Below are positions 17,764-29,873 of a DNA stretch of 32,693 nucleotides, one piece after another. The position numbers were made by a program, and so were the translations under genes. The notes under the pieces were generated by a model. That model did not search any database and was not told where the DNA came from. It saw only the letters and a program-made list of their open reading frames with translations. This DNA comes from Myxococcales bacterium (GTDB lineage Bacteria; Myxococcota; Myxococcia; Myxococcales; 40CM-4-68-19). The stretch's first letter is position 1; each line of letters begins with the position of its first letter. The DNA is taken from positions 1 to 32,693 of the forward strand of contig JBJMQJ010000217.1 of assembly GCA_045802765.1 (NCBI GenBank). The letters are read 5' to 3'.

Positions 17764-18495
17764 ATGGAACGCCAGACGTACGCTTTGAGACTCGCCTACG
17801 ACGGTGCCGCTTTCCGCGGATGGCAGCGGCAGCCGGCGCTCCCGACCGTGCAGCGGGCGGTGGAGGACGCGCTCACCGCCTTGCTCGGCGAGCGAGTGCA
17901 GGTGCACGGTGCCGCTCGCACCGACGCAGGGGTGCATGCCGAGGGTCAAGTCGCCAGCTTCACGGCCGGGCGCTCGCTGCCGCCGGACGGCCTCGGCGAG
18001 CTGCGGGTACCCGAGGGGGTTCGTGTTCTCGCGGCGGCACGGGCGCCCCCAGGCTTCCATGCGCGCGCCAGCGCCGCCGGAAAGCGGTACCGCTACCGCT
18101 TCGCGGCAGGCAGCTCGCTCGCCTGGGACCTCGGTCGCGCGAGCCCCGACTGGGATCGCGCCCGCGCGGCCCTGGAGGGCCTGCGCGGGCTGCCCCACCT
18201 GAGCGGTCTGGCGTCTCCCTCTCGGGGAAGCAAGGCGGCGCCTCCGCTCGACGAGTGGAGCCTCGCGGCGGAGCTGGCGACGGCAGAGCTGACGGTCCGT
18301 GCGCGGGCATTTCGCAAGCACCAGATCCGCAATCTTGCCGGCCACCTGGCGGCGGTGGCGCTGGGGCTTGCAACGCCGGAATCGCTCCAGCGCCTCGCCG
18401 CCGGCTTGCGGCCCTGGCACGGGGCTACCGCGCCAGCGCGCGGCTTGACGCTCCTCGAGGTCTTCTACCCGCCGGGGCTCGACCCGTTCAGGTGA
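17764..18495 (+). CDS. truA: tRNA pseudouridine(38-40) synthase TruA
   Basis: I use the internal ATG at 17764 in track ORF 17566..18495. The product begins MERQTYALRLAYDGAAFRGWQRQP. The catalytic-Asp motif is GAARTDAGVHA. Confidence 0.85.
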   Translation: MERQTYALRLAYDGAAFRGWQRQPALPTVQRAVEDALTALLGERVQVHGAARTDAGVHAEGQVASFTAGRSLPPDGLGELRVPEGVRVLAAARAPPGFHARASAAGKRYRYRFAAGSSLAWDLGRASPDWDRARAALEGLRGLPHLSGLASPSRGSKAAPPLDEWSLAAELATAELTVRARAFRKHQIRNLAGHLAAVALGLATPESLQRLAAGLRPWHGATAPARGLTLLEVFYPPGLDPFR

Positions 18496-19315
18496 GCGGC
18501 GGACGCAGCGGCACCAGGCCGGCAGCCTCGTTCAGGCGCCCCGAGCGGAACGGCTCCAGGTCCACGCTGACGAACTTGAAGCCAGCCTCCCGCAGCGCCC
18601 GCGCCGCCTGATCGCGCACCGTCAGGAGGCGGGGCAGCTCCGCCTCGGCCACCTCGATCCGCGCGACGTCTCCGTGCCAGCGGACGCGGAACTCGCGCAG
18701 CCCCAGTCTCCGCAGCGCCATCTCCGACCGGGCGAGCTGGTCGAGGCGCTCGCGCGTCACCTCGGTGCCGTAGGGGATGCGGCTCGAAAGGCACGGCTGC
18801 TGGGGCTTGTCCCAGGTGGGCAGCCCCATCTCCCGCGAGAGCTCGCGGATCTCCGCCTTGGTCAGCGCCGCCTCGGCGAGCGGCTGCACCACCGCGTGCT
18901 CGTCCGCCGCCTTCAGGCCGGGGCGGTAGTCGCGCAGCTCGTCGGCGTTCGTGCCGGAGACGACCGCCGAGAGGCCGCGGGCGCGCGCCTCCTCTCGCGC
19001 CAGGTCGTACAGCTCCGTCTTGCAGAAGTAGCATCGGTCCGCCGGGTTGCTCGCGTAGTGCGGGTCGTCGAGCTCGGCGGAGGGTTTCTCCACGTGCTCG
19101 GCGCGCAGGTCGCGCGCCAACGCGCGGGCGGCTTCCAGCTCGTCGGGCGGCACGGCCGGCGAGACCGCCGTGAACGCCACCGCGCGGTGCCCGAGGGCTT
19201 CGCGGGCGAGCGCGAGGAGGAGCGCCGAATCGACTCCGCCCGAGTATGCGACGAGCGCGCTGCCCAGGCCGCGCAGCCGCTCGATCACCTGCTCCCGTTT
19301 GCGCGACAGCTCCAT
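18488..19315 (-). CDS. larE: PP-loop ATP-utilising enzyme, LarE-type sulfur transferase family (TIGR00268-like)
   Basis: 275 aa. The PP-loop is VAYSGGVDSALLL. The conserved Cys region is PQQPCLSSRIPYG. The 3' end overlaps the truA 3' end by 8 nt (convergent). Confidence 0.75.
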   Translation of the reverse strand: MELSRKREQVIERLRGLGSALVAYSGGVDSALLLALAREALGHRAVAFTAVSPAVPPDELEAARALARDLRAEHVEKPSAELDDPHYASNPADRCYFCKTELYDLAREEARARGLSAVVSGTNADELRDYRPGLKAADEHAVVQPLAEAALTKAEIRELSREMGLPTWDKPQQPCLSSRIPYGTEVTRERLDQLARSEMALRRLGLREFRVRWHGDVARIEVAEAELPRLLTVRDQAARALREAGFKFVSVDLEPFRSGRLNEAAGLVPLRPPLT

Positions 19316-19387: not shown

Positions 19388-20290
19388 TCATGTCCCGACC
19401 CGGTTCCGACCGCCGGCCTTGGCTCGATAGAGCGCAGCGTCGGCGCGCGCGATGACCGCGGTCGCGTCCATCTGTCCCGCGGCGGCCGATGCGCAACCGA
19501 TACTGACCGTCACGGGGATCGCGCCCGCTGCCGTCATGACGGGCAGGGACGCCGCCGCCGACCGCATCCGCTCCGCGACTGCGAGGGACCCGGCGGTGCC
19601 ACATCCCGGCAGCACCGCGATCAGCTCCTCGCCGCCATAGCGCCCGAGCGCATCGTACGTCCGGAGAACGGCGGCGAGCCTCGCGGCCAATTCGCGCAGG
19701 ACGTCGTCTCCAGCCTGGTGGCCATGCCGGTCGTTGACGCGCTTGAAGTGGTCGGCGTCGAGGAGGAGCACGGACAGCTCGCTTCCCTGGCGGCTCGCGC
19801 GCGCGATCTCTTCGTCGAGCCGTTGCAGGATCGCCGTCCGGTTGTACAGCCCCGTCAAGCCGTCTCGCGTAGCCTGGACGCGGAGGGCTTCCTGGGCGGC
19901 CACCAGCTGCGCCTGCAGCGTGAGGATGCGCTCTCCGGTGCGCAGCCGGGCTTTCAGCTCCTCGGCATCGAAGGGCTTGCGGATGTAGTCGTCGGCGCCG
20001 GCCTCGAGCCCGGCCACCAGATCGCTCCGGGCTTCTCGCGAGGTGAGCAGGAGCAAGTACGAATACGGCGCCCCGGGGCGTGCGCGCGCGCGGCGGCACA
20101 CCTCGAGCCCGTCCAGCCGGGGCATCATCCAGTCGAGCACCGCCAGCCGCGGCGCGGTGTCGCGCAACAGCGACGCGAGAGCTTCCTCGCCGTCCTTGGC
20201 CACCTCCACCTCGTATCCCCACCGCACCAGGGACGCCTGCAGGACGCGGCGCGAGATCGGTTCATCGTCGGCGATGAGGACCCCGGTCAC
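19388..20290 (-). CDS. response regulator-diguanylate cyclase (REC + GGDEF)
   Basis: GTG start overlaps the hybrid-kinase stop (GTGA at 20287-20290). The receiver reads [14 protein letters not shown]...[13 protein letters not shown]. The GGDEF domain carries an RTYD I-site five residues before the active-site variant GGEEL. Confidence 0.85.
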
Positions 20291-22860
20291 GCTGCGTCCT
20301 CGGTGCAGAGCGCCTCGAGATCCGCCCGCAAGGTGGTCAGGGCCAGGGCGAGGGATTCGTAGATCTCCCGGGCGCCTTCCAGCTCGTTCGAGCGGCCCAG
20401 CAGCTCCAGGCGCCTGGCCAGCTCGGCGACGGTCAGGCCGCCCACGTTCGAGGCGCACCCCGTCAGCGCATGCGCCGTCCACGCCACGGCCGCGGCATCG
20501 GCTTTCCAGACCGCCTCGCGAATCGCGGAAAGCTGTAGAGGCGCTTCTTCCGCGAAGATCCCGGCCAGCTCGCGCAACAGCTCGCGGTCTCCTTCCACGC
20601 GCGCCAGCAAGCCCTCGCGATCGAGGTTTGTGGCCGACTGCGGGGACGGCCGCGGCGCCGGTGGGACGCGCGCGCCGAGCACGCGTGCCATCTCGGCATC
20701 GAGGTCCTTCGCTCGCAGCGGTTTCGGGACGTACCCGTCCATGCCTGCCGCGAAGCAGCGCTCCCGATCTCCCTTCATCGCATGGGCCGTCACGGCGATG
20801 ATCGGAACGCGGCGCCCGGTCGCCTTCTCCCGGTCGCGGATGGCCGCCGTCGCCTCGAGGCCGCTCATCTCCGGCATCTGCACGTCCATGAGGACCACAT
20901 CGAAAGTCTCGCGGTCGAGCGCGGACAGAACCTCCCGTCCGTTGTTGGCGAGCACCGGCCGGTGCCCGCCTCTTTCCAGCATGCGCAGCGCAAGGCGCTG
21001 GTTGACCGCGTTGTCTTCGGCGAGAAGCACCCGGAGCCCCTTCGGCACCGGACGATGCGTGTCCCGGGCCGCCTCCTCCTCGACGAGCGATGCAGCGCCG
21101 ATCGAGCGGACCACCGCGTCGCGCAGATCCGATTGCTTGACGGGCTTCATCAAGTACACGGATACGCCCGCCTCGAGGCAGCGCTCCGAGTCGCCCAGGT
21201 CGCTTGCCGACGAAAGCATCAGGATCGGGGCCTTCGCGAGCGACTTGCCCAGCCGCATCCTGCGGGCAAGCTCGAAACCGTCCATCTCGGGCATCCGCGC
21301 ATCGACGATCGCCAGAGCGAACGGACGTCGTTCCCGCTCGGCAGAGTCGAGGAGCCCGAGCGCGGCCGGCCCGCTGCCGGCGATCTCCGGGTCCATGCCC
21401 CAGGAGAGAAGCATTTCGCGGACGATCATCCGATTGGTTGCGTTGTCGTCGACGACGAGGACGCGCCGCCCCTGCAGATCGATCGGCGCGCCGGGCGCGG
21501 CTTGCCGCGGGGCGAGGTGCAGCGCGAGGCGTATGGTGAAGGCGAAGGAGCTTCCTTTCCCGAGCTCGCTCTCGACCTCGAGCCGGCCCCCCATCTTCTC
21601 GACGAGCTGCTGGGAGATGGCGAGGCCGAGTCCAGTCCCGCCGTACCTCCGCGTCGTCGAGCTGTCCCCCTGCGTGAACGGCTCGAAGATGGCGCCCTGC
21701 TTCTCCGGCGCGATGCCGATCCCGGTGTCGATGACGCGAAAGCGCAGATGGAATCCGTCGGCGGCCCGCGCCGCGGTCTCGACACGGACCATCACCTCTC
21801 CGGCCTCGGTGAACTTGATCGCGTTCCCCACCAGGTTCACGAGGACCTGCCCGAGCCGCGGAAAGTCGCCGACCAGCGCCTCCGGGAGATCGGCCGCGAC
21901 GTGGCAGAGCAGCTCGAGCCCCTTGGCCGAAGCGCGCACCGAGAGCGGCCGCAGCAGGTCGCCCAGCCGTTCGCGAAGCGCGAACGGAGCGGGGACGAGC
22001 TCGAGCTTGCCCGCCTCGATCTTCGAAAAATCGAGGATGTCGTTGATGACGCCGAGCAGCGAATCGGCCGAGGAGCTGACCATCTGCACGTACTCGCGCT
22101 GCTCGCGCGTCAGCTCGGTCTCGCCGAGCAGCTCCGTCATGCCGATGATCCCGTTCATCGGCGTGCGGATCTCGTGGCTCATGTTGGCGAGGAACTCGCT
22201 CTTCGCCCGGTTCGCTTCCTCGGCGGCGAGCCGCGCCTTGCGCAGCAGACGCGATTGCTCCTCCATCCGCTCGACCGACCGCCGCGCCAGCTGGAGCGCC
22301 CTCGATTTTTCGTTGCGGAGGCGCTCGGCGGTCCGGGCGGTGACGGCGAGATAGACGTTGCAGCCGAGCAGCGCGGCGAGCTTGACGAGCTCGAGGTGCC
22401 AGGACAAGGGACGCCCGTCGACCAGCGCGATCCACGCCAGCAGGCCCGCATAACCCGCGCCGGCCGCCGCGCCGAAGGCAAGCGCCCGGCGGAAGCTCGT
22501 GTGCGACTGATCGGCGACGCGGACGAGGAGCAGCGGCCACAGCCAGCTGTGCTCCCCGCCCGTCTGGTGGATGAACACGAGCCAGACGAGCATGTCGCAG
22601 GCGAGAAAGGCGCTGACCAGATCGAGGCTCGTCTTGCGGTATGACGCGCGGACGGCGAGATACGTGGCGAGGACGTAGCCGACGGCCAGCCACAGGACCC
22701 AGCCGGGTACGCCCGCGGGAGCGGCCGCCACCATCAGGATCAGGAGCCCGAATCCGAACGCGCGCAGGGCGGGGATCTGTACCGTGTCGAGCCGCTTGCG
22801 GTTCCCCGGCCGACCTGAGGATCCCCGCAGATCGACCCATTCGCGCAGGAGGCCCTGCAT
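20287..22860 (-). CDS. hybrid sensor histidine kinase: multi-TM sensor, HisKA, HATPase_c, two receiver domains, C-terminal Hpt
   Basis: I use the internal ATG at 22860 (MQGLLREW...), followed by about 5-6 hydrophobic segments. The H-box is [18 protein letters not shown]. The receivers read [13 protein letters not shown]...DARMPEMDG and [13 protein letters not shown]...DVQMPEMSG. The Hpt domain reads [13 protein letters not shown]. The track ORF extends to 23025. Confidence 0.85.
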
Positions 22861-23046
22861 CGCCGTGTTCTGCGGCTCGGATCGGGTCGCGGGCGCCACC
22901 ACCGGGTATCGGCAGATCGCCGCCGTTCTGCAGCGCGCGCCGGCGGTGTGTGCATCGGGCGGGTTTGTCCACAACGAGCAGCGCAGCAGGTGCGGGCGCT
23001 TGGGCGCCCGATCATGCCCAATCACGAATCGGAAGCGGCTAAGGCG

Positions 23047-23811
23047 TCAGCGCTTGCGCTTCCCGCCCGCTGCTGCGCGCCGGGGCTCGACCCGCGCTGT
23101 CCGTGCCGCGGCCCGCTGCTTGGGGGCCGCCTTCTTGTGCAACTTCACCGCCTTGCGCAGCTTGACCGGCCGGACCTTCTCCGGTTTCGCCGCCTTGGGC
23201 GGCGCAGGCGCGGGCGTGGGCTTGCTCCGTACCGAGATCTTCGGACGGCCCTTCATCGCAGCCACGTTGGGGTCGATCAGGCGCTGCGCGACGAGCTGCC
23301 CCAGGATGTGCTCCACCGCCTCGTCGACCGTCGTCTTCGAAGTGTCGACGATGACCTCGGGGTGCTGCGGCGGCTCGTAGGGTTCGCTGATGCCGACCAG
23401 GTTCTTCAGCTCGCCGGCAAGCGCCTTCTTGTAGCGGCCCGTCCTGTCGCGCTGGATGAGGGTCTCGATCGGGCACTCGACGAAGACCTCGGCGAACCGG
23501 CCGATCTGCCGCCGGGCCTCGTCGCGAGTCTCCTTGTAGGGGCTCTCGATGGCGGCCTGGAGCACGATGCCGCCGCCGCGCGTGACGAGCCTGCACAGCC
23601 AGGCGAGCTTGCGCGCCTCGAGATTGCGCTCGTCCTTGTTCTGCCCGTGCGCGACGTTCAGGAACTGTTCAGCCTCGCCGCCGTCCAGTACCTCGACAGT
23701 TTTCCCCAGGCGCCGCAAGCGGTTGGCGAGCCCGGCGGCCAGGGTGGATTTCCCGGCGCCACTCATTCCGGTGAACCACACCGTGAAGCCAGCCGATGTC
23801 GTGCCGTTCAT
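23047..23811 (-). CDS. adenylylsulfate (APS) kinase-like P-loop protein with divergent substrate motifs and a Lys/Pro/Ala-rich basic C-terminal tail
   Basis: I use the internal ATG at 23811 (MNGTTSAGFTVWFTGMSGAGKSTLA), with GGAG about 10 nt upstream. The CysC-like core is AEVFVECPIETLIQRDRTGRYKKALAGELKNLVGISEPYEPP. The tail is KPTPAPAPPKAAKPEKVRPVKLRKAVKLHKKAAPKQRAAARTARVEPRRAAAGGKRKR. Confidence 0.75.
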   Translation of the reverse strand: MNGTTSAGFTVWFTGMSGAGKSTLAAGLANRLRRLGKTVEVLDGGEAEQFLNVAHGQNKDERNLEARKLAWLCRLVTRGGGIVLQAAIESPYKETRDEARRQIGRFAEVFVECPIETLIQRDRTGRYKKALAGELKNLVGISEPYEPPQHPEVIVDTSKTTVDEAVEHILGQLVAQRLIDPNVAAMKGRPKISVRSKPTPAPAPPKAAKPEKVRPVKLRKAVKLHKKAAPKQRAAARTARVEPRRAAAGGKRKR

Positions 23812-23926
23812 GGGTCCCGATCTCCGCAGCAGAACACTGAGTTGGAAACGCACATTACCGGTTGCCCTACCACCACGCAAGCAAATGCCTGCCCGGTGGG
23901 AGCCCCGATTCTCCGAATTTAGAAAG

Positions 23927-24391
23927 TCAAATGATGACGGGCACTTGTTCTTCCGCAAAATCGACGCGCGCGGAGTCCCAGGTATACAGGCGGGCGGCGT
24001 CGACCCCGGTGTCCTTGCAGGAGATGACCAGATATTGGACGCCCGGCCAGAGCGGCTCGATCCCGCCGCCGAGGGCCATCTCGCGATCCTCGCGCGAGAA
24101 ATATGCGCCGACGTCGGGATGCGAATGCACGATGGCAGCCAGCCTGCCGCCCTCCTGCTCGGCCTTCGCCAACGCGGCGAGCACCGCCTTCGGATCCATC
24201 ACATACCCGTCGCGACCGGTGCGCTCGCTCGTGCCCGCGGCAGCCGCGCTGCCGGCGACATTGGCGATCGGGAGAAACCGCAGCGATCCGTCGCGGGCGG
24301 CCAGAACCAGCCCGCAGCACTCGGCCGGATACGTGCTCCGCGCGTGCGCGGCAATCCGCGCCATCAACGGTTGCAGATCTGGTCCGGTCAC
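23927..24391 (-). CDS. mec: JAMM/MPN+ metallopeptidase (Mec-type, CysO-cysteine hydrolase-like)
   Basis: The JAMM motif is complete: E in YPAECCG, then HSHPDVGAYFSREDRE (HxHx7SxxD). GTG at 24391 overlaps the cysM stop (GTGA). An alternative ATG is at 24364. Confidence 0.85.
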   Translation of the reverse strand: MTGPDLQPLMARIAAHARSTYPAECCGLVLAARDGSLRFLPIANVAGSAAAAGTSERTGRDGYVMDPKAVLAALAKAEQEGGRLAAIVHSHPDVGAYFSREDREMALGGGIEPLWPGVQYLVISCKDTGVDAARLYTWDSARVDFAEEQVPVII

Positions 24392-25305
24392 GGCGTGTCC
24401 GGCGGCGGGAGATAGCGATCGGCCCGATCCGGGAAAAGAGTCACCACCACCCCGGGCCGGCCCGACGCGGCGAGCTCGCGCGCGACCTGGAGCGCGCCGA
24501 CTGCCGCCGCCCCCGCGCTGTGCCCCGCCAGCAGTCCTTCGTCCGATACGAGCCGCTCGGCCATGTCCCACCCCGCATCGGTGGAGATGGACAGCTTCCG
24601 GTCGAGCTCCTCTTCCCGGTAGATCGGGGGCACGATGCTGGAAGGCATGTGCTTGAGGCCCTCCAGGCCGTGGAGCGCCTCCGCGGGCTCGACCGCGATC
24701 ACCTGGACCGCGCCGGAATGCCGTCTCAGGCCGCGCGCGGTGCCCATGATCGTGCCGCCGGTGCCAATCCCCGCCACGAAGTGCGTGACGCGGCCTTTTG
24801 TGTCCCGCCAGATCTCTTCCGCGGTCGTCACCTCGTGCGCGCGGGGGTTCATCGGGTTCGAATACTGGTCGGCGTAGAACCAGCGCTCTGGCGCCTCGGC
24901 GACGAGCTTGCGGCACAGCCGGATTGCGCCGTCCGACTGCTCGAGCGGATCGCTGAAGATCTGCTCTGCGCCGTACGCACGGGTGAGCTGCTTGCGCGCG
25001 TCGGAAACGTTGCCCGGCATGACCAGCGCCACCCGAACCCCCAGCGCGGCGCCGAGCCAGGCGTAGGCGATCCCGGTGTTGCCGCTGGTAGAGTCGATCA
25101 ACGTGCGCGCCCGCCCCGGTCCCAAAAGGCCGCGCTCGATGGCGTCCTGGACGATGAACAGCCCGGCGCGGTCCTTGACGCTCCCGCCGGGGTTGAGCCA
25201 GTCGAGCTTGGCCCAGATCTCCACGCCGGGCGTCTCGCGCTCCAGGGAGCGGAGCCGGACCATCGGCGTATTGCCGACCGCTTGCGCGAGGGCGTCGACG
25301 ATCAC
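24388..25305 (-). CDS. cysM: PLP-dependent cysteine synthase, CysM-type (sulfur-carrier-protein dependent class suggested by context)
   Basis: The product starts VIVDALAQAVGNTPMVRL. The Schiff-base lysine motif is NPGGSVKDR. The Asn loop is STSGNTGIA and the Gly loop GIGTGGTIMG. GTG at 25305 overlaps the upstream ORF stop (GTGA). The track ORF extends upstream to 25473. Confidence 0.9.
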   Translation of the reverse strand: MIVDALAQAVGNTPMVRLRSLERETPGVEIWAKLDWLNPGGSVKDRAGLFIVQDAIERGLLGPGRARTLIDSTSGNTGIAYAWLGAALGVRVALVMPGNVSDARKQLTRAYGAEQIFSDPLEQSDGAIRLCRKLVAEAPERWFYADQYSNPMNPRAHEVTTAEEIWRDTKGRVTHFVAGIGTGGTIMGTARGLRRHSGAVQVIAVEPAEALHGLEGLKHMPSSIVPPIYREEELDRKLSISTDAGWDMAERLVSDEGLLAGHSAGAAAVGALQVARELAASGRPGVVVTLFPDRADRYLPPPDTP

Positions 25306-25673
25306 GGCCGGACCAGATGCCGCACCGCGCGCAGCGCGGCCATCGCACCCTCTTCGGCTGGCGGCTGGCGGCTGGCGGCTGGCGGCTGACCGGCGAGGTC
25401 GATGGTGAGATCCGGATCGCGGTCGAGGGTCCGCGCGTCGAGGATCCGCACGTCTTGTGACAACTCGAGGCATTCACGCGCCGCCGCCGGATCGTCGACG
25501 AGGAGGCCACCGACGCCCGACACCGCGAGGTATCGCGCAGCCCAGCGGGCCGCGCGTCCCGTTCCCCGGACGCGGACGCACGAGGAGAGGAGGCGCTCCT
25601 GACCTTCGCCGCCGAGCCCCTCGAGGAGCAGGTGACGCGCGTAGCGCTCCTGCTGCGCCTCCGTGAGCAGCAA
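25302..25673 (-). CDS. 123-aa ORF resembling only the N-terminal helix and first Rossmann element of ThiF/MoeB E1 enzymes, with a degenerate P-loop
   Basis: TTG start lies 1 nt after the cysO stop. The N-terminus reads LLTEAQQERYARHLLLEGLGGEGQERLLSSCVRVRGTGRAARWAARYLAVSGVGGLLVDD. Third-position GC is about 84% by my count. The stop overlaps the cysM GTG. The C-terminal part crosses the heptamer repeat. Confidence 0.6.
   Translation of the reverse strand: MLLTEAQQERYARHLLLEGLGGEGQERLLSSCVRVRGTGRAARWAARYLAVSGVGGLLVDDPAAARECLELSQDVRILDARTLDRDPDLTIDLAGQPPAASRQPPAEEGAMAALRAVRHLVRP
25356..25390 (+). repeat. heptanucleotide tandem repeat (GGCTGGC)x4 + GGCTGAC
   Basis: The sequence is ggctggc ggctggc ggctggc ggctggc ggctgac. 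All three minus-strand frames are open across it and each reads QPPAASRQ-type peptide in the track ORFs. It has the same unit and the same strand as 12691-12720. Confidence 0.9.
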
Positions 25674-25674
25674 T

Positions 25675-25953
25675 CTACCCCCCGGCGATGGCCGGCACGA
25701 TGGTCAGCTTGTCGCCCTCGGCGAGCGCCGTCTGCAGCGACTTCCCGTGCCGGATGTCTTCGTCGTTGCGGAAGATGTTGACGTACCGGCGCAGCCCTCC
25801 CTTGTCGTCGAGAAGCCGCTCCCGCAATCCGGGGTAGCGCCGCGACAGGTCTTCCACGGCGGCCTGCACCGTGGTGGCGTTCTCGACGGACACCTCGCTC
25901 TGGCCTTGGGTGAGGGGCCGCAGGGGAGCGGGGATCTTCACGATGACTGGCAT
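25675..25953 (-). CDS. cysO: MoaD/ThiS-family ubiquitin-like sulfur carrier protein (CysO-like), C-terminal Gly-Gly
   Basis: I use the internal ATG at 25953, preceded by AAGGAGG. The 92-aa product is MPVIVKIPAPLRPLTQGQSEVSVE...EGDKLTIVPAIAGG-stop, so the GG is already exposed at the C-terminus. Confidence 0.9.
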   Translation of the reverse strand: MPVIVKIPAPLRPLTQGQSEVSVENATTVQAAVEDLSRRYPGLRERLLDDKGGLRRYVNIFRNDEDIRHGKSLQTALAEGDKLTIVPAIAGG

Positions 25954-25972
25954 TCTCTTCGAACCTCCTTCC

Positions 25973-26665
25973 TCAAGGATGCCCGAGAGCAGCCTCCGGC
26001 GCGAGGGCACAGGCAGGGCAGCCCGGATCGCGTGGGACCTCGACGTCCCGCTCGGTCCCGCGCAGCCCGTCCCACTGGTGCAGGCGCCCGAGCGTACGCG
26101 GCCGCTCGCCGCGCAGGACCCTGGCCGCTTCCCCGGCCATCGCCGCGCCGACGAGGCCGCACAACGGGGACGCCACTCCCGCCTCGGCGCAGGTCGGCAG
26201 CGCGCCGGGCGGCGGCGGCCCTTCGAACAGGCAGCGCAGGCACGCACCGCGCCCCGGCAGGACGGCGAGGAGCTGCCCGCCCCACCCCAGGACGGCGCCG
26301 TGGACGAGCGGGATCCGCGCCGCGCAGGCGGCATCGTTCGCCGCGAACCGGGTCTCGAACGAATCGGTGCCGTCGAGGAGCACGTCGCAGCCGGCCAGGA
26401 GTGCTGCGGCGGACCGCGGGTTGAAGCGTTGCACGCGCGCCTCCGCGTGCACCCCGGGGACGAGCTGCGACAGCCGGCGCGCGGCGACTTCGGCCTTCGG
26501 CCGTGCGACGTCGGCATCGGTGAACAAGACCTGCCGCGCCAGGTTGGAGCGCTCCACCCGGTCGTCGTCGACGAGCAGCAGTCGCACCCCGGGCATTTCC
26601 TCGGCGAGCGCCAGCGCCGCGGGGCAACCCAGCCCCCCCATGCCGAGGATCACGACGGTGGTCAT
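25973..26665 (-). CDS. ThiF/MoeB-family E1-like adenylyltransferase (no rhodanese domain)
   Basis: 230 aa. It begins MTTVVILGMGGLGCPAAL (GxGxxG). Other motifs are VERSNLARQ, LLDGTDSFETRF and the zinc-type Cys pairs CLRC and CPAC. The ATG overlaps the upstream stop (ATGA at 26662-26665). Confidence 0.9.
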   Translation of the reverse strand: MTTVVILGMGGLGCPAALALAEEMPGVRLLLVDDDRVERSNLARQVLFTDADVARPKAEVAARRLSQLVPGVHAEARVQRFNPRSAAALLAGCDVLLDGTDSFETRFAANDAACAARIPLVHGAVLGWGGQLLAVLPGRGACLRCLFEGPPPPGALPTCAEAGVASPLCGLVGAAMAGEAARVLRGERPRTLGRLHQWDGLRGTERDVEVPRDPGCPACALAPEAALGHP

Positions 26666-27420
26666 GCGGCCCGCTCCAGGCTGAACTCGCGCTCGCCCGC
26701 GGAGGAGAGAATCGCAAGCCCTCCCAGGCCCGCAGCCACGGCCGCCGCCGCGGCGGCGGCGTGCGACGCGAGGACGCCGCTGCTCCGCGCCAGCTCGGCG
26801 CGCGCGCCCGACGCCTCCGCGAAGGAGACGGGCCGAAGCTCGAATCCGGGCATCGCGCTGCGCAGCGGCAGCTCGGGCAGCTCCAGGTCCGCGGCGACCA
26901 GCGCGATGCCGCGCACCTGCGGCCAACGCGTCCGGACGGCCTGCAGCGTCCCGAGCAAGGCGGCCGTCGCGCCTGCGGGTCCGACCACCGCGGCCGGAGC
27001 CGAACGGAGATCGGCGAGGACCTCGGCGCCCAGCGTGCGCGCGCACTCGGCCGCCGCCCTGGGCCCGTCGAGCGGAGGAAGCAAGGTGCCGGGCAGGTCG
27101 CGCGCGCGGTGCATGGCCGCCTCGCGCGACGGCGCCTGCTCGAACCGGGCGCCCCAGACCCGAAGGGCCTCGCGCATCTCGTGCGAGATCGCGCCGTGCA
27201 CCGCGACCGCGAGCTGCACCCCGTGCCGGCGGGCCCAGCCGGCGGCCGCGAGGGCGCCTCCGGCGGTTGCCGCCAGCGAGGCCTGCGCGCCGCGCGCAAG
27301 GTCCGGAAGAATGCCCAGCGCGCGGTCGTCGGCGCCCCCGCTGGGGAGGAGCGACTCCAGCTTGAGCAGCGCGCCGCGCCAGCGCAGAACTGGCGTGGGT
27401 CGCTGCAACAGGTCGTCCAT
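26662..27420 (-). CDS. fold-type-II PLP enzyme homologue (CysK/CysM-like) lacking the Schiff-base lysine; probable pseudoenzyme
   Basis: These are the last 252 codons of track ORF 26662..29154. ATG at 27420 has GGAGG 7 nt upstream. PTPVLRW..LLKLESLLPSGGADDRAL aligns to TPMVRL..WAKLDWLNPGGSVKDRAG of the neighbouring CysM. TAGGALAAAGW aligns to TSGNTGIAYAW. Confidence 0.65.
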   Translation of the reverse strand: MDDLLQRPTPVLRWRGALLKLESLLPSGGADDRALGILPDLARGAQASLAATAGGALAAAGWARRHGVQLAVAVHGAISHEMREALRVWGARFEQAPSREAAMHRARDLPGTLLPPLDGPRAAAECARTLGAEVLADLRSAPAAVVGPAGATAALLGTLQAVRTRWPQVRGIALVAADLELPELPLRSAMPGFELRPVSFAEASGARAELARSSGVLASHAAAAAAAVAAGLGGLAILSSAGEREFSLERAA

Positions 27421-27459
27421 CCACTGGCCTCCGCGAGCGCCGCAGAATAAGGATGCGCC

Positions 27460-27756
27460 ATGAGGGCTGCAAGAACCGCCGTCCTGCTGCTCGCCGCCTG
27501 CCGCGCCTCGCCTCCTTCGTCGCCACCGCCGGCGGCGGCGCCCGACGGGCAGGCCGTCTCCTGCGTCGAGCAGTGGCTGGCGCAGCGGGACCTGAACCAG
27601 TACGGAGACCCGCTCGGAACCATGTACGCGGGAGGCACGCCGCTGTTCGACGAGAGAACGGGGCAGACGACCGACCGGATGCGTTACCTCGTGCGCAAGC
27701 ACCCGGAGCTTCAACAGGCCTGCCCAGCGGAAGTCCTGAAGGCGCACGCCCCTTAG
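27460..27756 (+). CDS. small hypothetical lipoprotein
   Basis: 98 aa. The N-terminus MRAARTAVLLLAACRASPP contains an L-A-A-C lipobox. It is divergent from the sulfur-carrier operon, with only 39 bp between the start codons. Confidence 0.6.
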   Translation: MRAARTAVLLLAACRASPPSSPPPAAAPDGQAVSCVEQWLAQRDLNQYGDPLGTMYAGGTPLFDERTGQTTDRMRYLVRKHPELQQACPAEVLKAHAP

Positions 27757-27843
27757 GTGTTCCGCCCGCGGCGCGACCGCCAAGCGTCGGCCGCCTGGCG
27801 CCCGACATTGCTCCTCTTCGTTCGCCGCTGCTAGCATCGGCGC

Positions 27844-29163
27844 GTGAGGGGGTCTTCCGCGGCGGTGCTCGGGTCGGAACGGACCGGCGCTCTGGCGTCC
27901 GGTCCGGCCGAATCGAGCAGCTCGGGCTTCGTCGAGGACCGGTTCCTCACCCGCGCCCGCGGGCTGTTCTACGCGCGAATCGCCTTCCTCGCGCTGGGCC
28001 TCGGCGTGATCGGCGTACCGGGATGGTCGCAGTCGTTCGGCGTGGGCGGCGGGGCCGCGTTCGCGGTGTTCGTGGCCATGGTCGGCTACACGGCGGCCAA
28101 TTACTGGCTCATCGGCCGCCCGCGTCTGGGCCGCGCAGTCACCTTCGTCACCCTCTGCTGCGACTTGTGCGTGCTGGTCTGGGTGGTCTCGATGACCGGC
28201 GGGCTGCGCAGCCCGCTGCTCGCCGCGCAGCTGCTCTTCACCACGCTGTTCGTGCTCCTGTTTCCCTCGCCCTTCGCGGTCGTGCCGCCCATCCTGACGT
28301 TTCCAGCGGTCGCCAAGCTCGATCAGCTCCTCGGCGGCCGCGCGGTGGTGCAGTTCGATCTCTTCATCCTGCTCTGGTACTCGGCGATCAACTGCATCCT
28401 CGTGTACCTGATGGTCTACTTGAACGAACGGGACCGGGCGCGCCACCGCGACCTGCAGCGCCTGCACCGCGCGGTGCGCGAGATGGCGGTGGTCGAGGAG
28501 CGCAACCGCCTGGCGCGCGAGATCCACGACGGGCTCGGCGGGGTGCTCAGCAGCGTGGTCATCCAGAGCGAGTACCTCTTGAACATGATCGACGGAAGCG
28601 AGGTGCGCGCCCGGCTCACCGGCTCGAGCGAGTCGCGCGCCACCCTGCTGCCCGTCATCCGCAAGGAGCTGTCCGATCTGCACGGCGCGGCGGAGGACTC
28701 GATGGACGAGCTGCGCCGCTCGCTGCGCATGATGCAGGAGAACTTCGACCTCGTCTCCGCGCTGCAAGACTACTGCAAGGTCGCGGCGGGACGGCATCGC
28801 CTGGAGGTCCGCTTCACCCGCGCCGGGCGCGAGCGATCCGTCCGGCCCGAGAGCGCGCTCGCGCTCTTTCGCGTCCTGCAGGAAAGCCTCACCAACGTCG
28901 CCAAGCACTGCGGGCGGGGCACCGAGGTCGACGTGGCGCTCGCCTTCGGAGCGGGCACCGCGGTGGTCTGCGTCCAGGACCATGGTCCCGGGTTCCTCCT
29001 TCCTACCGATGGCGCCGAGCTCTCGCGGAAGGGACACTTCGGCTTGGAGAACATGCGCGAGCGGGCCACCAAGGTCGGGGGCACCCTGCAGCTGTCCTCG
29101 GCGCCCGGCCGCGGAACGCGCGTCGAGCTGACCGTCCACGCCGGAGAGGAGCAAGCCAGATGA
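27844..29163 (+). CDS. membrane sensor histidine kinase, HisKA_3 (NarX/DesK-type)
   Basis: 439 aa with about 5 N-terminal TM segments. The HisKA_3 H-box is EERNRLAREIHDGLGGVLSSV. The HATPase region reads LQESLTNVAKH...VQDHGPGF...GHFGLENMRERA. Confidence 0.9.
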   Translation: MRGSSAAVLGSERTGALASGPAESSSSGFVEDRFLTRARGLFYARIAFLALGLGVIGVPGWSQSFGVGGGAAFAVFVAMVGYTAANYWLIGRPRLGRAVTFVTLCCDLCVLVWVVSMTGGLRSPLLAAQLLFTTLFVLLFPSPFAVVPPILTFPAVAKLDQLLGGRAVVQFDLFILLWYSAINCILVYLMVYLNERDRARHRDLQRLHRAVREMAVVEERNRLAREIHDGLGGVLSSVVIQSEYLLNMIDGSEVRARLTGSSESRATLLPVIRKELSDLHGAAEDSMDELRRSLRMMQENFDLVSALQDYCKVAAGRHRLEVRFTRAGRERSVRPESALALFRVLQESLTNVAKHCGRGTEVDVALAFGAGTAVVCVQDHGPGFLLPTDGAELSRKGHFGLENMRERATKVGGTLQLSSAPGRGTRVELTVHAGEEQAR

Positions 29164-29873
29164 ACGTCGCGCCCGCGAGACAGGGCCAGAAGATCAAGGT
29201 GGTGGTGGTCGAGGACCAGCCGCCGGTGCTCAAGAACCAGCTGAAGATCCTCCAGGACGCGCCCGAGATCGAGGTGGTCGGCACCGCCCTCTCCGGCGAG
29301 GCGGCGCTGACGCTGCTGGAAAAGCAGCAGCCCGACGTGGTCCTCCAGGACCTGGGGCTGCCGCGCATGAGCGGGATCGAAGTGACGCGCGAGGTGAAGC
29401 GGCGCTGGCCGGGCGTCGAGGTCCTGATCTTCACCATCTTCGACGAGGAGGAGAAGGTGATCGAGGCGGTGAAGGCGGGCGCCTCCGGCTACCTCCTCAA
29501 AGGCGCCACGGGCGAGAAGGTGATCGACGCCATCCGCGAGGTGAACGCGGGAGGCACCGTGATCCAGCCGAACCTCGCGCGGCGGCTGCTGCGGCATTTC
29601 CGCGTGCCGGAGGATGCGAATGCTCCTCCCCAGCCCGAGGCGTTGCCGCCCGGCATCCGCGAGGAACCGCCCATCCGCCCACTCACCGTGCGCGAGATCG
29701 AGATCCTGCGGCTCATCGCGAAGGGGCTCTCCAACAACGAGGCTGCGCGCGTGCTGGGCCTCTCGCGGGCCACGGTACGCACCCACCTCGAGCACATCTA
29801 CCAGAAGCTCGAGGTCACCAATCGCGTCGAGGCGGTCACCGAAGGGCTGCGCAAGGGCCTCATCGAGATGTAG
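29160..29873 (+). CDS. response regulator, NarL/LuxR family
   Basis: The ATG overlaps the kinase stop (ATGA at 29160-29163). The receiver reads KVVVVEDQPPVL...VVLQDLGLPRMSG. The HTH reads LTVREIEILRLIAKGLSNNEAARVLGLSRATVRTHLEHIYQKLEV. Confidence 0.9.
   Translation: MNVAPARQGQKIKVVVVEDQPPVLKNQLKILQDAPEIEVVGTALSGEAALTLLEKQQPDVVLQDLGLPRMSGIEVTREVKRRWPGVEVLIFTIFDEEEKVIEAVKAGASGYLLKGATGEKVIDAIREVNAGGTVIQPNLARRLLRHFRVPEDANAPPQPEALPPGIREEPPIRPLTVREIEILRLIAKGLSNNEAARVLGLSRATVRTHLEHIYQKLEVTNRVEAVTEGLRKGLIEM

Follow-up and report, generated by a model that had tools for sequence, protein, structure and literature searches.

A sulfur-carrier E1 encoded as two complementary genes in a conserved operon of uncultured Myxococcota

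The DNA examined here, referred to as the window, covers positions 1 to 32,693 of contig JBJMQJ010000217.1 from a Myxococcales bacterium (GCA_045802765.1) and has a GC content of about 70%. Six genes on its minus strand encode a ubiquitin-like (Ubl) sulfur carrier, a ThiF-type activating enzyme (E1), a cysteine synthase of the CysK/CysM family, a JAMM peptidase and two degenerate paralogues, one of the E1 and one of the cysteine synthase (Table 1). The E1 of this operon is encoded as two complementary genes: the catalytic subunit, designated dN-ThiF, has lost N-terminal helices that the 123-residue E1 paralogue, designated mini-E1, has kept. We infer that this reciprocal degeneration reflects complementation. 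The two proteins probably associate into an asymmetric heteromer that has a single active site, a reading to which we assign a probability of about 0.6 on the basis of sequence, co-occurrence and predicted fold. By analogy, mini-E1 would then likely act as an inactive adenylation subunit in the manner of SAE1, APPBP1 and Tcd1. The core of the pathway is already known and the new element is the reciprocal loss between a catalytic E1 and its dead paralogue.

An earlier interpretation made from the letters of the window (the sequence-only reading) had proposed that each enzyme of the operon is paired with a degenerate paralogue. The pairing held, but the active ThiF turned out to be truncated itself, with the missing part kept by mini-E1. 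The enzyme-pseudoenzyme complexes that were also proposed are favoured by the present evidence and appear plausible, although the asymmetry created by a truncated active E1 had been missed.

Two complementary E1 genes

The first residues of dN-ThiF, MTTVVILGMGGLG, correspond to the first Rossmann strand (the GxGGxG strand), and its alignment begins at residue 30 of E. coli ThiF and residue 33 of MoeB. About 30 N-terminal residues of canonical E1s, including the RYxRQ/GGxGQ helices, are missing. The in-frame sequence upstream of the ThiF start in seven relatives contained no RYxRQ motif, only unrelated arginine-rich read-through. In alignments to MoeB and ThiF, G11 of the GxGGxG loop, R44, K57 and D101 corresponded to MoeB G41, R73, K86 and D130, taken from the published list of MoeB ATP-binding and catalytic residues (PMC12355090), and the zinc CxxC pairs (C142/C145 and GCPAC) were retained, as was the crossover Cys159. 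Pfam and NCBIfam searches found a ThiF domain only. The sequence-only reading had equated the core with a pathway that uses a MoeZ-type E1, a label that does not suit a 230-residue ThiF without a rhodanese domain. No E2-like gene or domain was found in Pfam, NCBIfam and PADLOC searches of the locus proteins.

The helices missing from dN-ThiF are found in mini-E1, for which 217 homologues of about 105-150 residues and 45-77% identity were collected. Among 56 sequences 20 columns were invariant, and the invariant residues include L3, Q7, E9, R10, R13, H14, L17, G22, G24, Q25, E26 and L28. The motif E9-R10-Y11-x-R13-H14 (ERYxRH) in the N-terminal helices was likewise invariant. R13 aligned with ThiF R11 and MoeB R14, the arginine fingers that are supplied in trans by the neighbouring subunit (PMC13139853). 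In dimers of MoeB or ThiF these helices extend into the ATP site of the adjacent protomer. The glycine loop of mini-E1 is dead, with GTGRAA in place of GxGGxG, an internal deletion has removed the SNLxRQ/K/D segment and the catalytic cysteine, and none of the MoeB-type catalytic residues is present. The C-terminal helix, GAxAALxAVR, is conserved and aligns with the late E1 helix GxLxAxEALK. A dead paralogue with the arginine-finger helix and an active paralogue are, by sequence and co-occurrence, encoded together.

The pattern of constraint on mini-E1 was uneven. The ratios of nonsynonymous to synonymous substitution rates (dN/dS), calculated pairwise between the window genes and six relatives, were 0.22-0.50 for the whole gene, 0.12-0.19 for codons 1-72, 0.35-0.81 for the linker and 0.20-0.65 for the C-terminal helix; the corresponding values were 0.07-0.14 for CysM, 0.15-0.18 for ThiF and 0.03-0.06 for Ubl. 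The AlphaFold2 model of mini-E1 (mean predicted local distance difference test score, pLDDT, 84.5; predicted template modelling score, pTM, 0.76) was compact and confident in its core and consisted of two N-terminal helices, a small beta-alpha sheet and the C-terminal helix. The lowest confidence (66-69) fell on the N-terminal helices, the most conserved part of the protein, which would fit an interface segment. A Foldseek search with the model returned E1-family chains only: Uba4, ThiF, MoeB, PaaA and the inactive subunits SAE1 and APPBP1.

The linker of mini-E1 contains a perfect tandem repeat of CGGCTGG units; the whole repeat encodes QPPAASRQPPA. As 7 nt do not make up whole codons, the gain or loss of a unit would frameshift the conserved C-terminal helix. 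At the junction of the Ubl and mini-E1 genes (window positions 25670-25685) the sequence is TAG-A-TTG: the two frames are offset by 1 nt, mini-E1 starts with TTG, and six consecutive G precede the stop codon. In the closest relatives the junction is GG-TAG-ATG in frame, with a single stop codon between the proteins, while in more distant relatives one or two residues follow GG (C, R, E, WI, LR, SR) and the mini-E1 start overlaps.

The canonical N-terminal RYxRQ arginine-finger helices were absent from ThiF in all of the relatives examined and were carried only by mini-E1. In every one of the 29 clade loci found by way of mini-E1, its gene sits between that of the Ubl and whichever gene comes next. 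When the sampling started from the catalytic ThiF instead, all three long-contig loci had mini-E1 between Ubl and CysM. The contigs of several divergent mini-E1s were too short to include the ThiF gene. The gene is also retained by relatives that have neither of the two genes of the PALP family, which argues that mini-E1 belongs to the E1/Ubl/JAB core and not to CysM.

An exhaustive profile search gave 7151 matches (806 below 1e-10), of which the best 150 were looked at. Among these 150, dozens of proteins of 110-160 residues, each representing a 50%-identity cluster, matched the profile from end to end. The same set included degenerate E1s of about 200-240 residues that keep the N-terminal LxDxQIERYSRQIILPExGGxGQERLL, the zinc CxxC pairs and the late helix and lack the SNLxRQ/K/D ATP-binding segment and the catalytic cysteine. 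From their sequences these proteins look like full-size inactive adenylation domains, with mini-E1 a further reduced form. The partner ThiF was without the N-helix in all six degenerate-E1 loci with a visible ThiF N-terminus (L087, L093, L106, L129, L131 and L170). At about 60 loci the only ThiF was a canonical one, and all of these retained QIERYSRQIIL..VGG.GQ.KLL; the 80 metagenome loci had been picked by the N-helix motif, a pattern that also matched ordinary MoeB/ThiF N-termini, and most of them were canonical and served as a comparison set only.

Two side observations were made among these loci. Canonical clusters L096 (8097-11469) and L146 (4553-6351) have two full-length ThiF genes with the N-helix in both, so duplication alone does not force the loss of the helix. 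In other lineages, at L087 (6001-7889), L093, L094, L109 and L086, a degenerate E1 of about 220 residues, or a Ubl-mini-E1 fusion with JAB, precedes genes for a 'variant radical SAM' protein (NF045502), a DASS anion symporter and ATP sulfurylase.

The Rossmann fold still has its beta1-alpha-beta2 start in dN-ThiF and mini-E1 alike; the origin of the pair is therefore duplication followed by reciprocal degeneration. Simple fission of an E1 gene was considered and rejected, as this start is present in both genes. Natural fusions of Ubl to mini-E1 were found in P0256 (...AIAGG-AGETSA-LTADQRRRYARQ...) and P0293, and in the canonical relatives L103 and L104 Ubl is fused to full-length ThiF.

Full-text searches found no description of an inactive or pseudoenzyme partner of ThiF or MoeB; the study of Burroughs, Iyer and Aravind (2009), which might mention such paralogues, lay outside their coverage. 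A wider reading of these data, which we put forward tentatively, is that bacterial sulfur-carrier E1s evolved an inactive-plus-active asymmetry, regarded as typical of eukaryotic E1s, separately from eukaryotes and here in an extreme form, with the 123-residue protein as an obligatory finger and interface subunit, and that this E1 and the pair formed by CysM and a pseudo-CysM without PLP are both heteromers with one active site. They would possibly belong to a carrier-channelling complex, and the degenerate E1s of about 200-240 residues would possibly be evolutionary intermediates.

The carrier, the cysteine synthase pair and the predicted pathway

The carrier ends in AIAGG directly before the stop codon. 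It scored 71.6 bits against the NCBIfam SAMP1 model (cutoff 60), and its best relative of solved structure was CysO of M. tuberculosis (3dwg_C), matched over the full length with E 1.2e-21. In related loci the Ubl often continues for one or two residues beyond GG (GG-C, GG-R, GG-E, GG-WI and others), which suggests that the JAMM peptidase is probably also the carrier-maturation protease. The metallopeptidase motif is complete, E...HSHPDVGAYFSRED (E...HxHx7SxxD). In the CysM-like protein the catalytic lysine (GGSVKDRA), TSGNTG and GTGGT are intact, and its score against TIGR01138 (cysM) was 324.5 bits, below the cutoff of 394.2. The sequence-only reading had assigned the core to the CysO/CysM/Mec logic, and the match of the carrier to M. 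tuberculosis CysO, the complete JAMM motif and the retained lysine of CysM bear this out.

The predicted pathway would have four steps: 1) the E1 would adenylate the C-terminal Gly-Gly of the CysO-like carrier, 2) sulfur would convert the carrier adenylate to a thiocarboxylate, with sulfide from the sulfate pathway as a plausible donor, 3) the pyridoxal phosphate (PLP) enzyme of the CysK/CysM family would add the carrier thiocarboxylate to aminoacrylate and 4) the JAMM peptidase would release cysteine and, in relatives with extensions after GG, probably mature the carrier as well. Sulfide is plausible as the donor because an APS (adenosine 5'-phosphosulfate) kinase gene is adjacent and a rhodanese is lacking; the conserved neighbourhood of the related loci contained no rhodanese or SirA-like gene. 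Judged from the sequences, the operon core probably makes cysteine by this protein-thiocarboxylate route, both the product and the sulfur source being predictions.

The second degenerate paralogue, designated PALPx, had 75 homologues of 42-90% identity, the named ones from metagenome-assembled genomes of Myxococcales. Its AlphaFold2 model was of high confidence (pLDDT 94.6, pTM 0.91) and its top Foldseek matches were CysK, CysM, DcsD and SbnA (E 1e-16 to 1e-14, TMq about 0.8). The position of the Schiff-base lysine is occupied by Asp31; among 43 homologues the residue was D in 36, E in four, S in two, A in one and K in none. Relative to the CysM of the operon, TSGNTG is replaced by ATAGAA, GTGGT by APAGAxAA and the N1-binding serine region by HAAA, and new conserved motifs have appeared (HExRExLRxWGA, LPPLDG, ELPELP and GEREFSL). 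The gene is under constraint, with dN/dS of 0.18-0.26. PALPx can be called a CysK-fold pseudoenzyme with confidence and, to judge from its residues, would be unable to bind PLP covalently. Neither PALPx nor mini-E1 has an invariant cysteine; a persulfide-relay role, considered for both, was rejected on this ground.

Where both positions were visible, PALPx and CysM were present together in about 21 loci, absent together in three distinct loci (L004/L005, L013 and L017) and never found singly. Given this co-occurrence and conservation, the most economical reading is that PALPx is a non-catalytic partner of CysM, an idea that we regard as possible and somewhat short of likely.

The locus and its neighbours

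The six minus-strand open reading frames (ORFs) between 27420 and 23927 translated intact, and their coding nature was supported by the GC content at third codon positions, 0.81-0.91 in these frames. Translation placed the ORF coordinates, the ATGA and GTGA overlaps, the AAGGAGG site and the motifs as the sequence-only reading had them, and the profile searches that it had suggested, made with Pfam and NCBIfam, agreed with all six assignments, confirming the PALP, ThiF, ThiS and Prok-JAB families. The stop codon of PALPx and the start codon of dN-ThiF share an ATGA overlap, a gap of 19 nt that includes AAGGAGG separates dN-ThiF from Ubl, mini-E1 starts 1 nt past the Ubl stop, and both the mini-E1/CysM and the CysM/JAMM junctions are GTGA overlaps. 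A promoter and terminator scan of 22800-27900 found none and was uninformative at 70% GC.

At 29 related loci, genomic and metagenomic, the gene order was fixed: a response regulator and a histidine kinase, divergent from [PALPx], ThiF, Ubl, mini-E1, [CysM], JAB, APS kinase and a LarE-like gene, where brackets mark the genes that some loci lack. Across about 30 loci from metagenome-assembled genomes of uncultured Myxococcota, PALPx and mini-E1 keep a constant position under purifying selection (dN/dS about 0.2), which answers the neighbourhood survey of the 252- and 123-residue ORFs that had been suggested. Their conservation and dN/dS exclude the scenario in which the extra ORFs are absent, frameshifted or neutrally evolving in relatives; they are genuine genes. 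The locus belongs to an uncultured lineage of Myxococcota, in which it forms a conserved cluster for sulfur assimilation.

Table 1. Features of the window, in operon order followed by the repeat and the neighbouring genes
Feature	Positions	Strand	Description	Support
PALPx	26662..27420	-	252-aa CysK/CysM-fold pseudoenzyme	Pfam PALP 3e-17, profile positions 4-189 only
dN-ThiF	25973..26665	-	230-aa catalytic E1 adenylation domain	Pfam ThiF 6.5e-61, positions 22-238
Ubl carrier	25675..25953	-	92-aa CysO/SAMP1-like ubiquitin-fold sulfur carrier	ThiS 7e-17
mini-E1	25302..25673	-	123-aa degenerate E1 paralogue, TTG start	ThiF 7.6e-06, positions 1-51 only
CysM-like	24388..25305	-	305-aa CysK/CysM-family PLP cysteine synthase	PALP 9.9e-68
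JAMM peptidase	23927..24391	-	154-aa Mec-like JAMM/MPN+ metallopeptidase	Prok-JAB 4.8e-22
Tandem repeat	25355..25388		Perfect 7-nt x 4.9 repeat in the mini-E1 linker	Tandem Repeats Finder, 100% matches
APS kinase (CysC)	23047..23811	-		APS_kinase 8e-41; TIGR00455 158.9 bits > 138.7 cutoff
Hybrid histidine kinase	20287-23025	-	912 aa; inserted between APS kinase and LarE in the window
Response-regulator/GGDEF protein	19388 to about 20290	-	Inserted between APS kinase and LarE in the window
LarE-family PP-loop sulfur transferase	18488..19315	-		TIGR00268 318.6 bits, cutoff 150
Lipoprotein-like ORF	27460-27756	+	98 aa	No family match; good third-position GC
HisKA_3 histidine kinase	27844-29163	+	Divergent from the operon	phmmer synteny
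LuxR/GerE response regulator	29160-29873	+	ATGA overlap with the HisKA_3 kinase (29160-29163)

The APS kinase gene starts 115 nt past the JAMM gene and follows JAB in all relatives. It had been described as divergent, and this did not hold, since it scored above the family cutoff (Table 1); it is an ordinary APS kinase and part of a conserved synteny that also holds LarE. Its C-terminal tail (23047-23280) is a stretch of about 75 residues, rich in lysine, alanine and proline and resembling histone H1; in some relatives the tail is longer and the protein totals 349-365 residues.

The LarE homologue has the SGGVDS PP-loop and the CxxC...C motif (C-Y-F-C and QQPC) of the [4Fe-4S] type. This motif binds a [4Fe-4S] cluster in T. 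maritima LarE, and the physiological sulfur donor of LarE is unsettled (PMC9283937). In about 25 relatives LarE comes directly after the APS kinase, and it was also seen near Ubl/ThiF clusters in the unrelated metagenome loci L112, L123, L146, L166 and L169. The carrier thiocarboxylate may be a sulfur donor of LarE. On the other side of the operon, the HisKA_3/LuxR pair was found divergent in every relative with sufficient flank (about 25 loci, by phmmer) and is a candidate regulator of the cluster. Only 39 nt separate the start of the 98-residue ORF from the divergent start of PALPx. Elsewhere the window carries ordinary chromosomal genes, for ClpX, PrkA, Hsp70, an M19 dipeptidase and signalling proteins.

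Alternative readings and comparison with known systems

Several observations weigh against the E1 heteromer and the cysteine route. The arginine finger has been reported to be non-essential for catalysis in MoeB and ThiF (PMC13139853), so dN-ThiF could work alone. The evidence comes mostly from one broad lineage with conserved synteny, and the co-occurrence is partly phylogenetic inertia. The selection of metagenome loci by their N-helix biases the comparison with canonical ThiFs, though not the helix loss in the partner ThiFs. Among the matches in the Protein Data Bank, the CysM-like protein scored 220.6 bits with M. tuberculosis CysK1 and 181.7 bits with M. tuberculosis CysM; on sequence it is not clearly of the O-phosphoserine/CysO-specific type. 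Lastly, the relatives L004/L005, L013 and L017 keep E1, Ubl, mini-E1 and JAB without CysM and PALPx, so that cysteine may not be the only or the primary product.

The dispensability of the finger also speaks for mini-E1 as an E1-derived carrier-binding adaptor or chaperone that hands the Ubl, or its thiocarboxylate, to CysM and LarE, with dN-ThiF homodimeric. The Ubl-mini-E1 fusions, the place of the mini-E1 gene always directly after the Ubl gene and the lack of an invariant cysteine or an ATP loop are in keeping with such a role. We nevertheless consider it unlikely. The parts that mini-E1 keeps are the N-helices and the late helix, whereas the surface with which E1s bind the beta-grasp fold is in the middle and C-terminal part, which has been deleted; the canonical Ubl-ThiF fusions of L103 and L104 indicate that the fusion may descend from an ancestral Ubl-E1 arrangement rather than from carrier binding; and the adaptor leaves unexplained why the partner ThiF has lost its N-helix both in the mini-E1 clade and in the loci with degenerate E1s of about 220 residues, two groups that were sampled separately. 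Decay is a further account, in which a standard pathway is accompanied by two non-functional duplicates. PALPx and mini-E1 do lack their catalytic motifs, the mini-E1 linker is almost neutral (dN/dS 0.35-0.81) and a 7-nt repeat lies within it. Yet in about 30 loci, with identities as low as 42-50%, both ORFs are intact and vary in neither length nor position, the dN/dS of their conserved parts is 0.12-0.26, both have confident AlphaFold2 folds and mini-E1 retains its 20 invariant columns in 56 sequences. The decay account, to which we would give almost no credence, is already refuted by this conservation.

The remaining alternatives concern the output of the operon. The thiocarboxylate could feed the [4Fe-4S] LarE, in the manner of TtuA/TtuB, or a SAMP-like conjugation, with CysM and PALPx as an optional branch. 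The loci L004/L005, L013 and L017, which lack both PALP genes and keep all the others, agree with this, as do the position of LarE after the APS kinase in about 25 loci and near Ubl/ThiF clusters in L112, L123, L146, L166 and L169, the CxxC...C motif of LarE with the TtuA/TtuB precedent discussed in PMC9283937, and the score of the carrier above the SAMP1 model cutoff. We regard a non-cysteine output as improbable, however, in view of the window having no LarB, LarC or LarA gene or tRNA-thiolation partner and of CysM lying inside the overlap-coupled operon in most loci; the LarE synteny could be the neighbourhood inertia of one lineage. Such an output is compatible with the explanation given here for the E1. 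The joint presence of an E1, a Ubl and a JAB, with weak PADLOC E1-E2 matches to ThiF (about 42 bits at best), could also suggest an anti-phage Ubl conjugation system of the Bil, CBASS Cap2/Cap3 or 6A-MBL type. There is no E2 domain, PADLOC gave no match for Ubl, JAB or mini-E1, the surrounding genes (APS kinase, CysM and LarE) belong to sulfur metabolism and the chromosomal locus is syntenic across the clade, and this idea has hardly any probability. The defence-system reading was rejected, the PADLOC output being limited to weak E1-superfamily matches of 42 bits or less.

The eukaryotic E1s derive from MoeB and ThiF, the textbook case of symmetric homodimers. A 2025 review (PMC12355090) describes MoeB/ThiF homodimers in which both protomers are active. 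If the heteromeric reading of dN-ThiF and mini-E1 is true, the operon is a bacterial example of the split into inactive and active adenylation domains by duplication and reciprocal degeneration, and, at about 350 residues in total, it would be a minimal and tractable model for what the inactive half of an E1 contributes. It would also flag two unannotated pseudoenzyme families, the mini and degenerate E1s and the lysine-less CysK proteins, that are currently annotated as 'ThiF family', 'hypothetical protein' or 'cysteine synthase', and it connects thiocarboxylate carriers with the LarE-type [4Fe-4S] sulfur insertases.

The operon shares with the CysO-CysM-Mec(+MoeZ) system of M. tuberculosis a CysO-like carrier ending in GG, a PLP enzyme of the CysK/CysM family and a JAMM peptidase in one operon. 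It differs in that the E1 has neither a rhodanese domain, which MoeZ has, nor the N-terminal helices, in the conserved addition of mini-E1 and a lysine-less CysK-fold protein, and in a cysteine synthase that is not clearly an O-phosphoserine-specific CysM. The closest published arrangement is found in classes 4c/4e of Iyer, Burroughs and Aravind (2006; PMC1779556), where ThiS, JAB and E1 genes occur with cysteine synthase or sulfate-assimilation genes. The present operon is 4e-like, with a rhodanese-less E1 beside sulfate-assimilation genes including APS kinase. A further difference is the lack of a SirA/TusA-like gene, both among the six operon genes and among their conserved neighbours. Inactive E1s and PALP proteins without the lysine are not mentioned in that paper. 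A related precedent is the thiocarboxylate route to homocysteine by MetM/MetO/Mec/MoeZ (Hasebe et al. 2024, as summarised in bioRxiv 10.1101/2024.10.14.618325). In other lineages the degenerate-E1 clusters L087, L093, L106, L129 and L170 carry a ThrC-like (MetM-like) gene beside Ubl and CysM, whereas neither a ThrC-like nor a NIL gene occurs in the window and PALPx has the CysK and not the ThrC fold.

The division of the E1 resembles that of SAE1/SAE2, APPBP1/UBA3 and the inactive and active adenylation domains (IAD/AAD) of UBA1, with a dead paralogue that carries the arginine-finger helix and a catalytic paralogue that has the ATP site and the cysteine; the Foldseek matches of mini-E1 include the SAE1 and APPBP1 chains. 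In contrast to the eukaryotic E1s, the inactive partner has only 123 residues and is without its middle, the N-helices are gone from the catalytic subunit itself, there is no E2, ubiquitin-fold domain (UFD) or Cys-domain insertion, the chemistry would be sulfur transfer and not conjugation, and the heterodimer is here predicted. In the yeast ct6A dehydratase Tcd1-Tcd2, inactive Tcd1 gives its Arg59 finger to the ATP site of Tcd2, although the finger was found to be non-essential (PMC13139853). Both systems are inactive/active pairs of the ThiF fold, but the substrate of Tcd is a tRNA and not a Ubl, both of its subunits are full length and it is eukaryotic. The trypanosome S-adenosylmethionine decarboxylase (AdoMetDC) and its prozyme are an example of activation by a pseudoenzyme (PMC5201418). 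A dead paralogue beside the active enzyme of a normally homodimeric family is also the logic proposed for PALPx/CysM and mini-E1/ThiF; the families are unrelated, and activation in the present operon is suggested by analogy.

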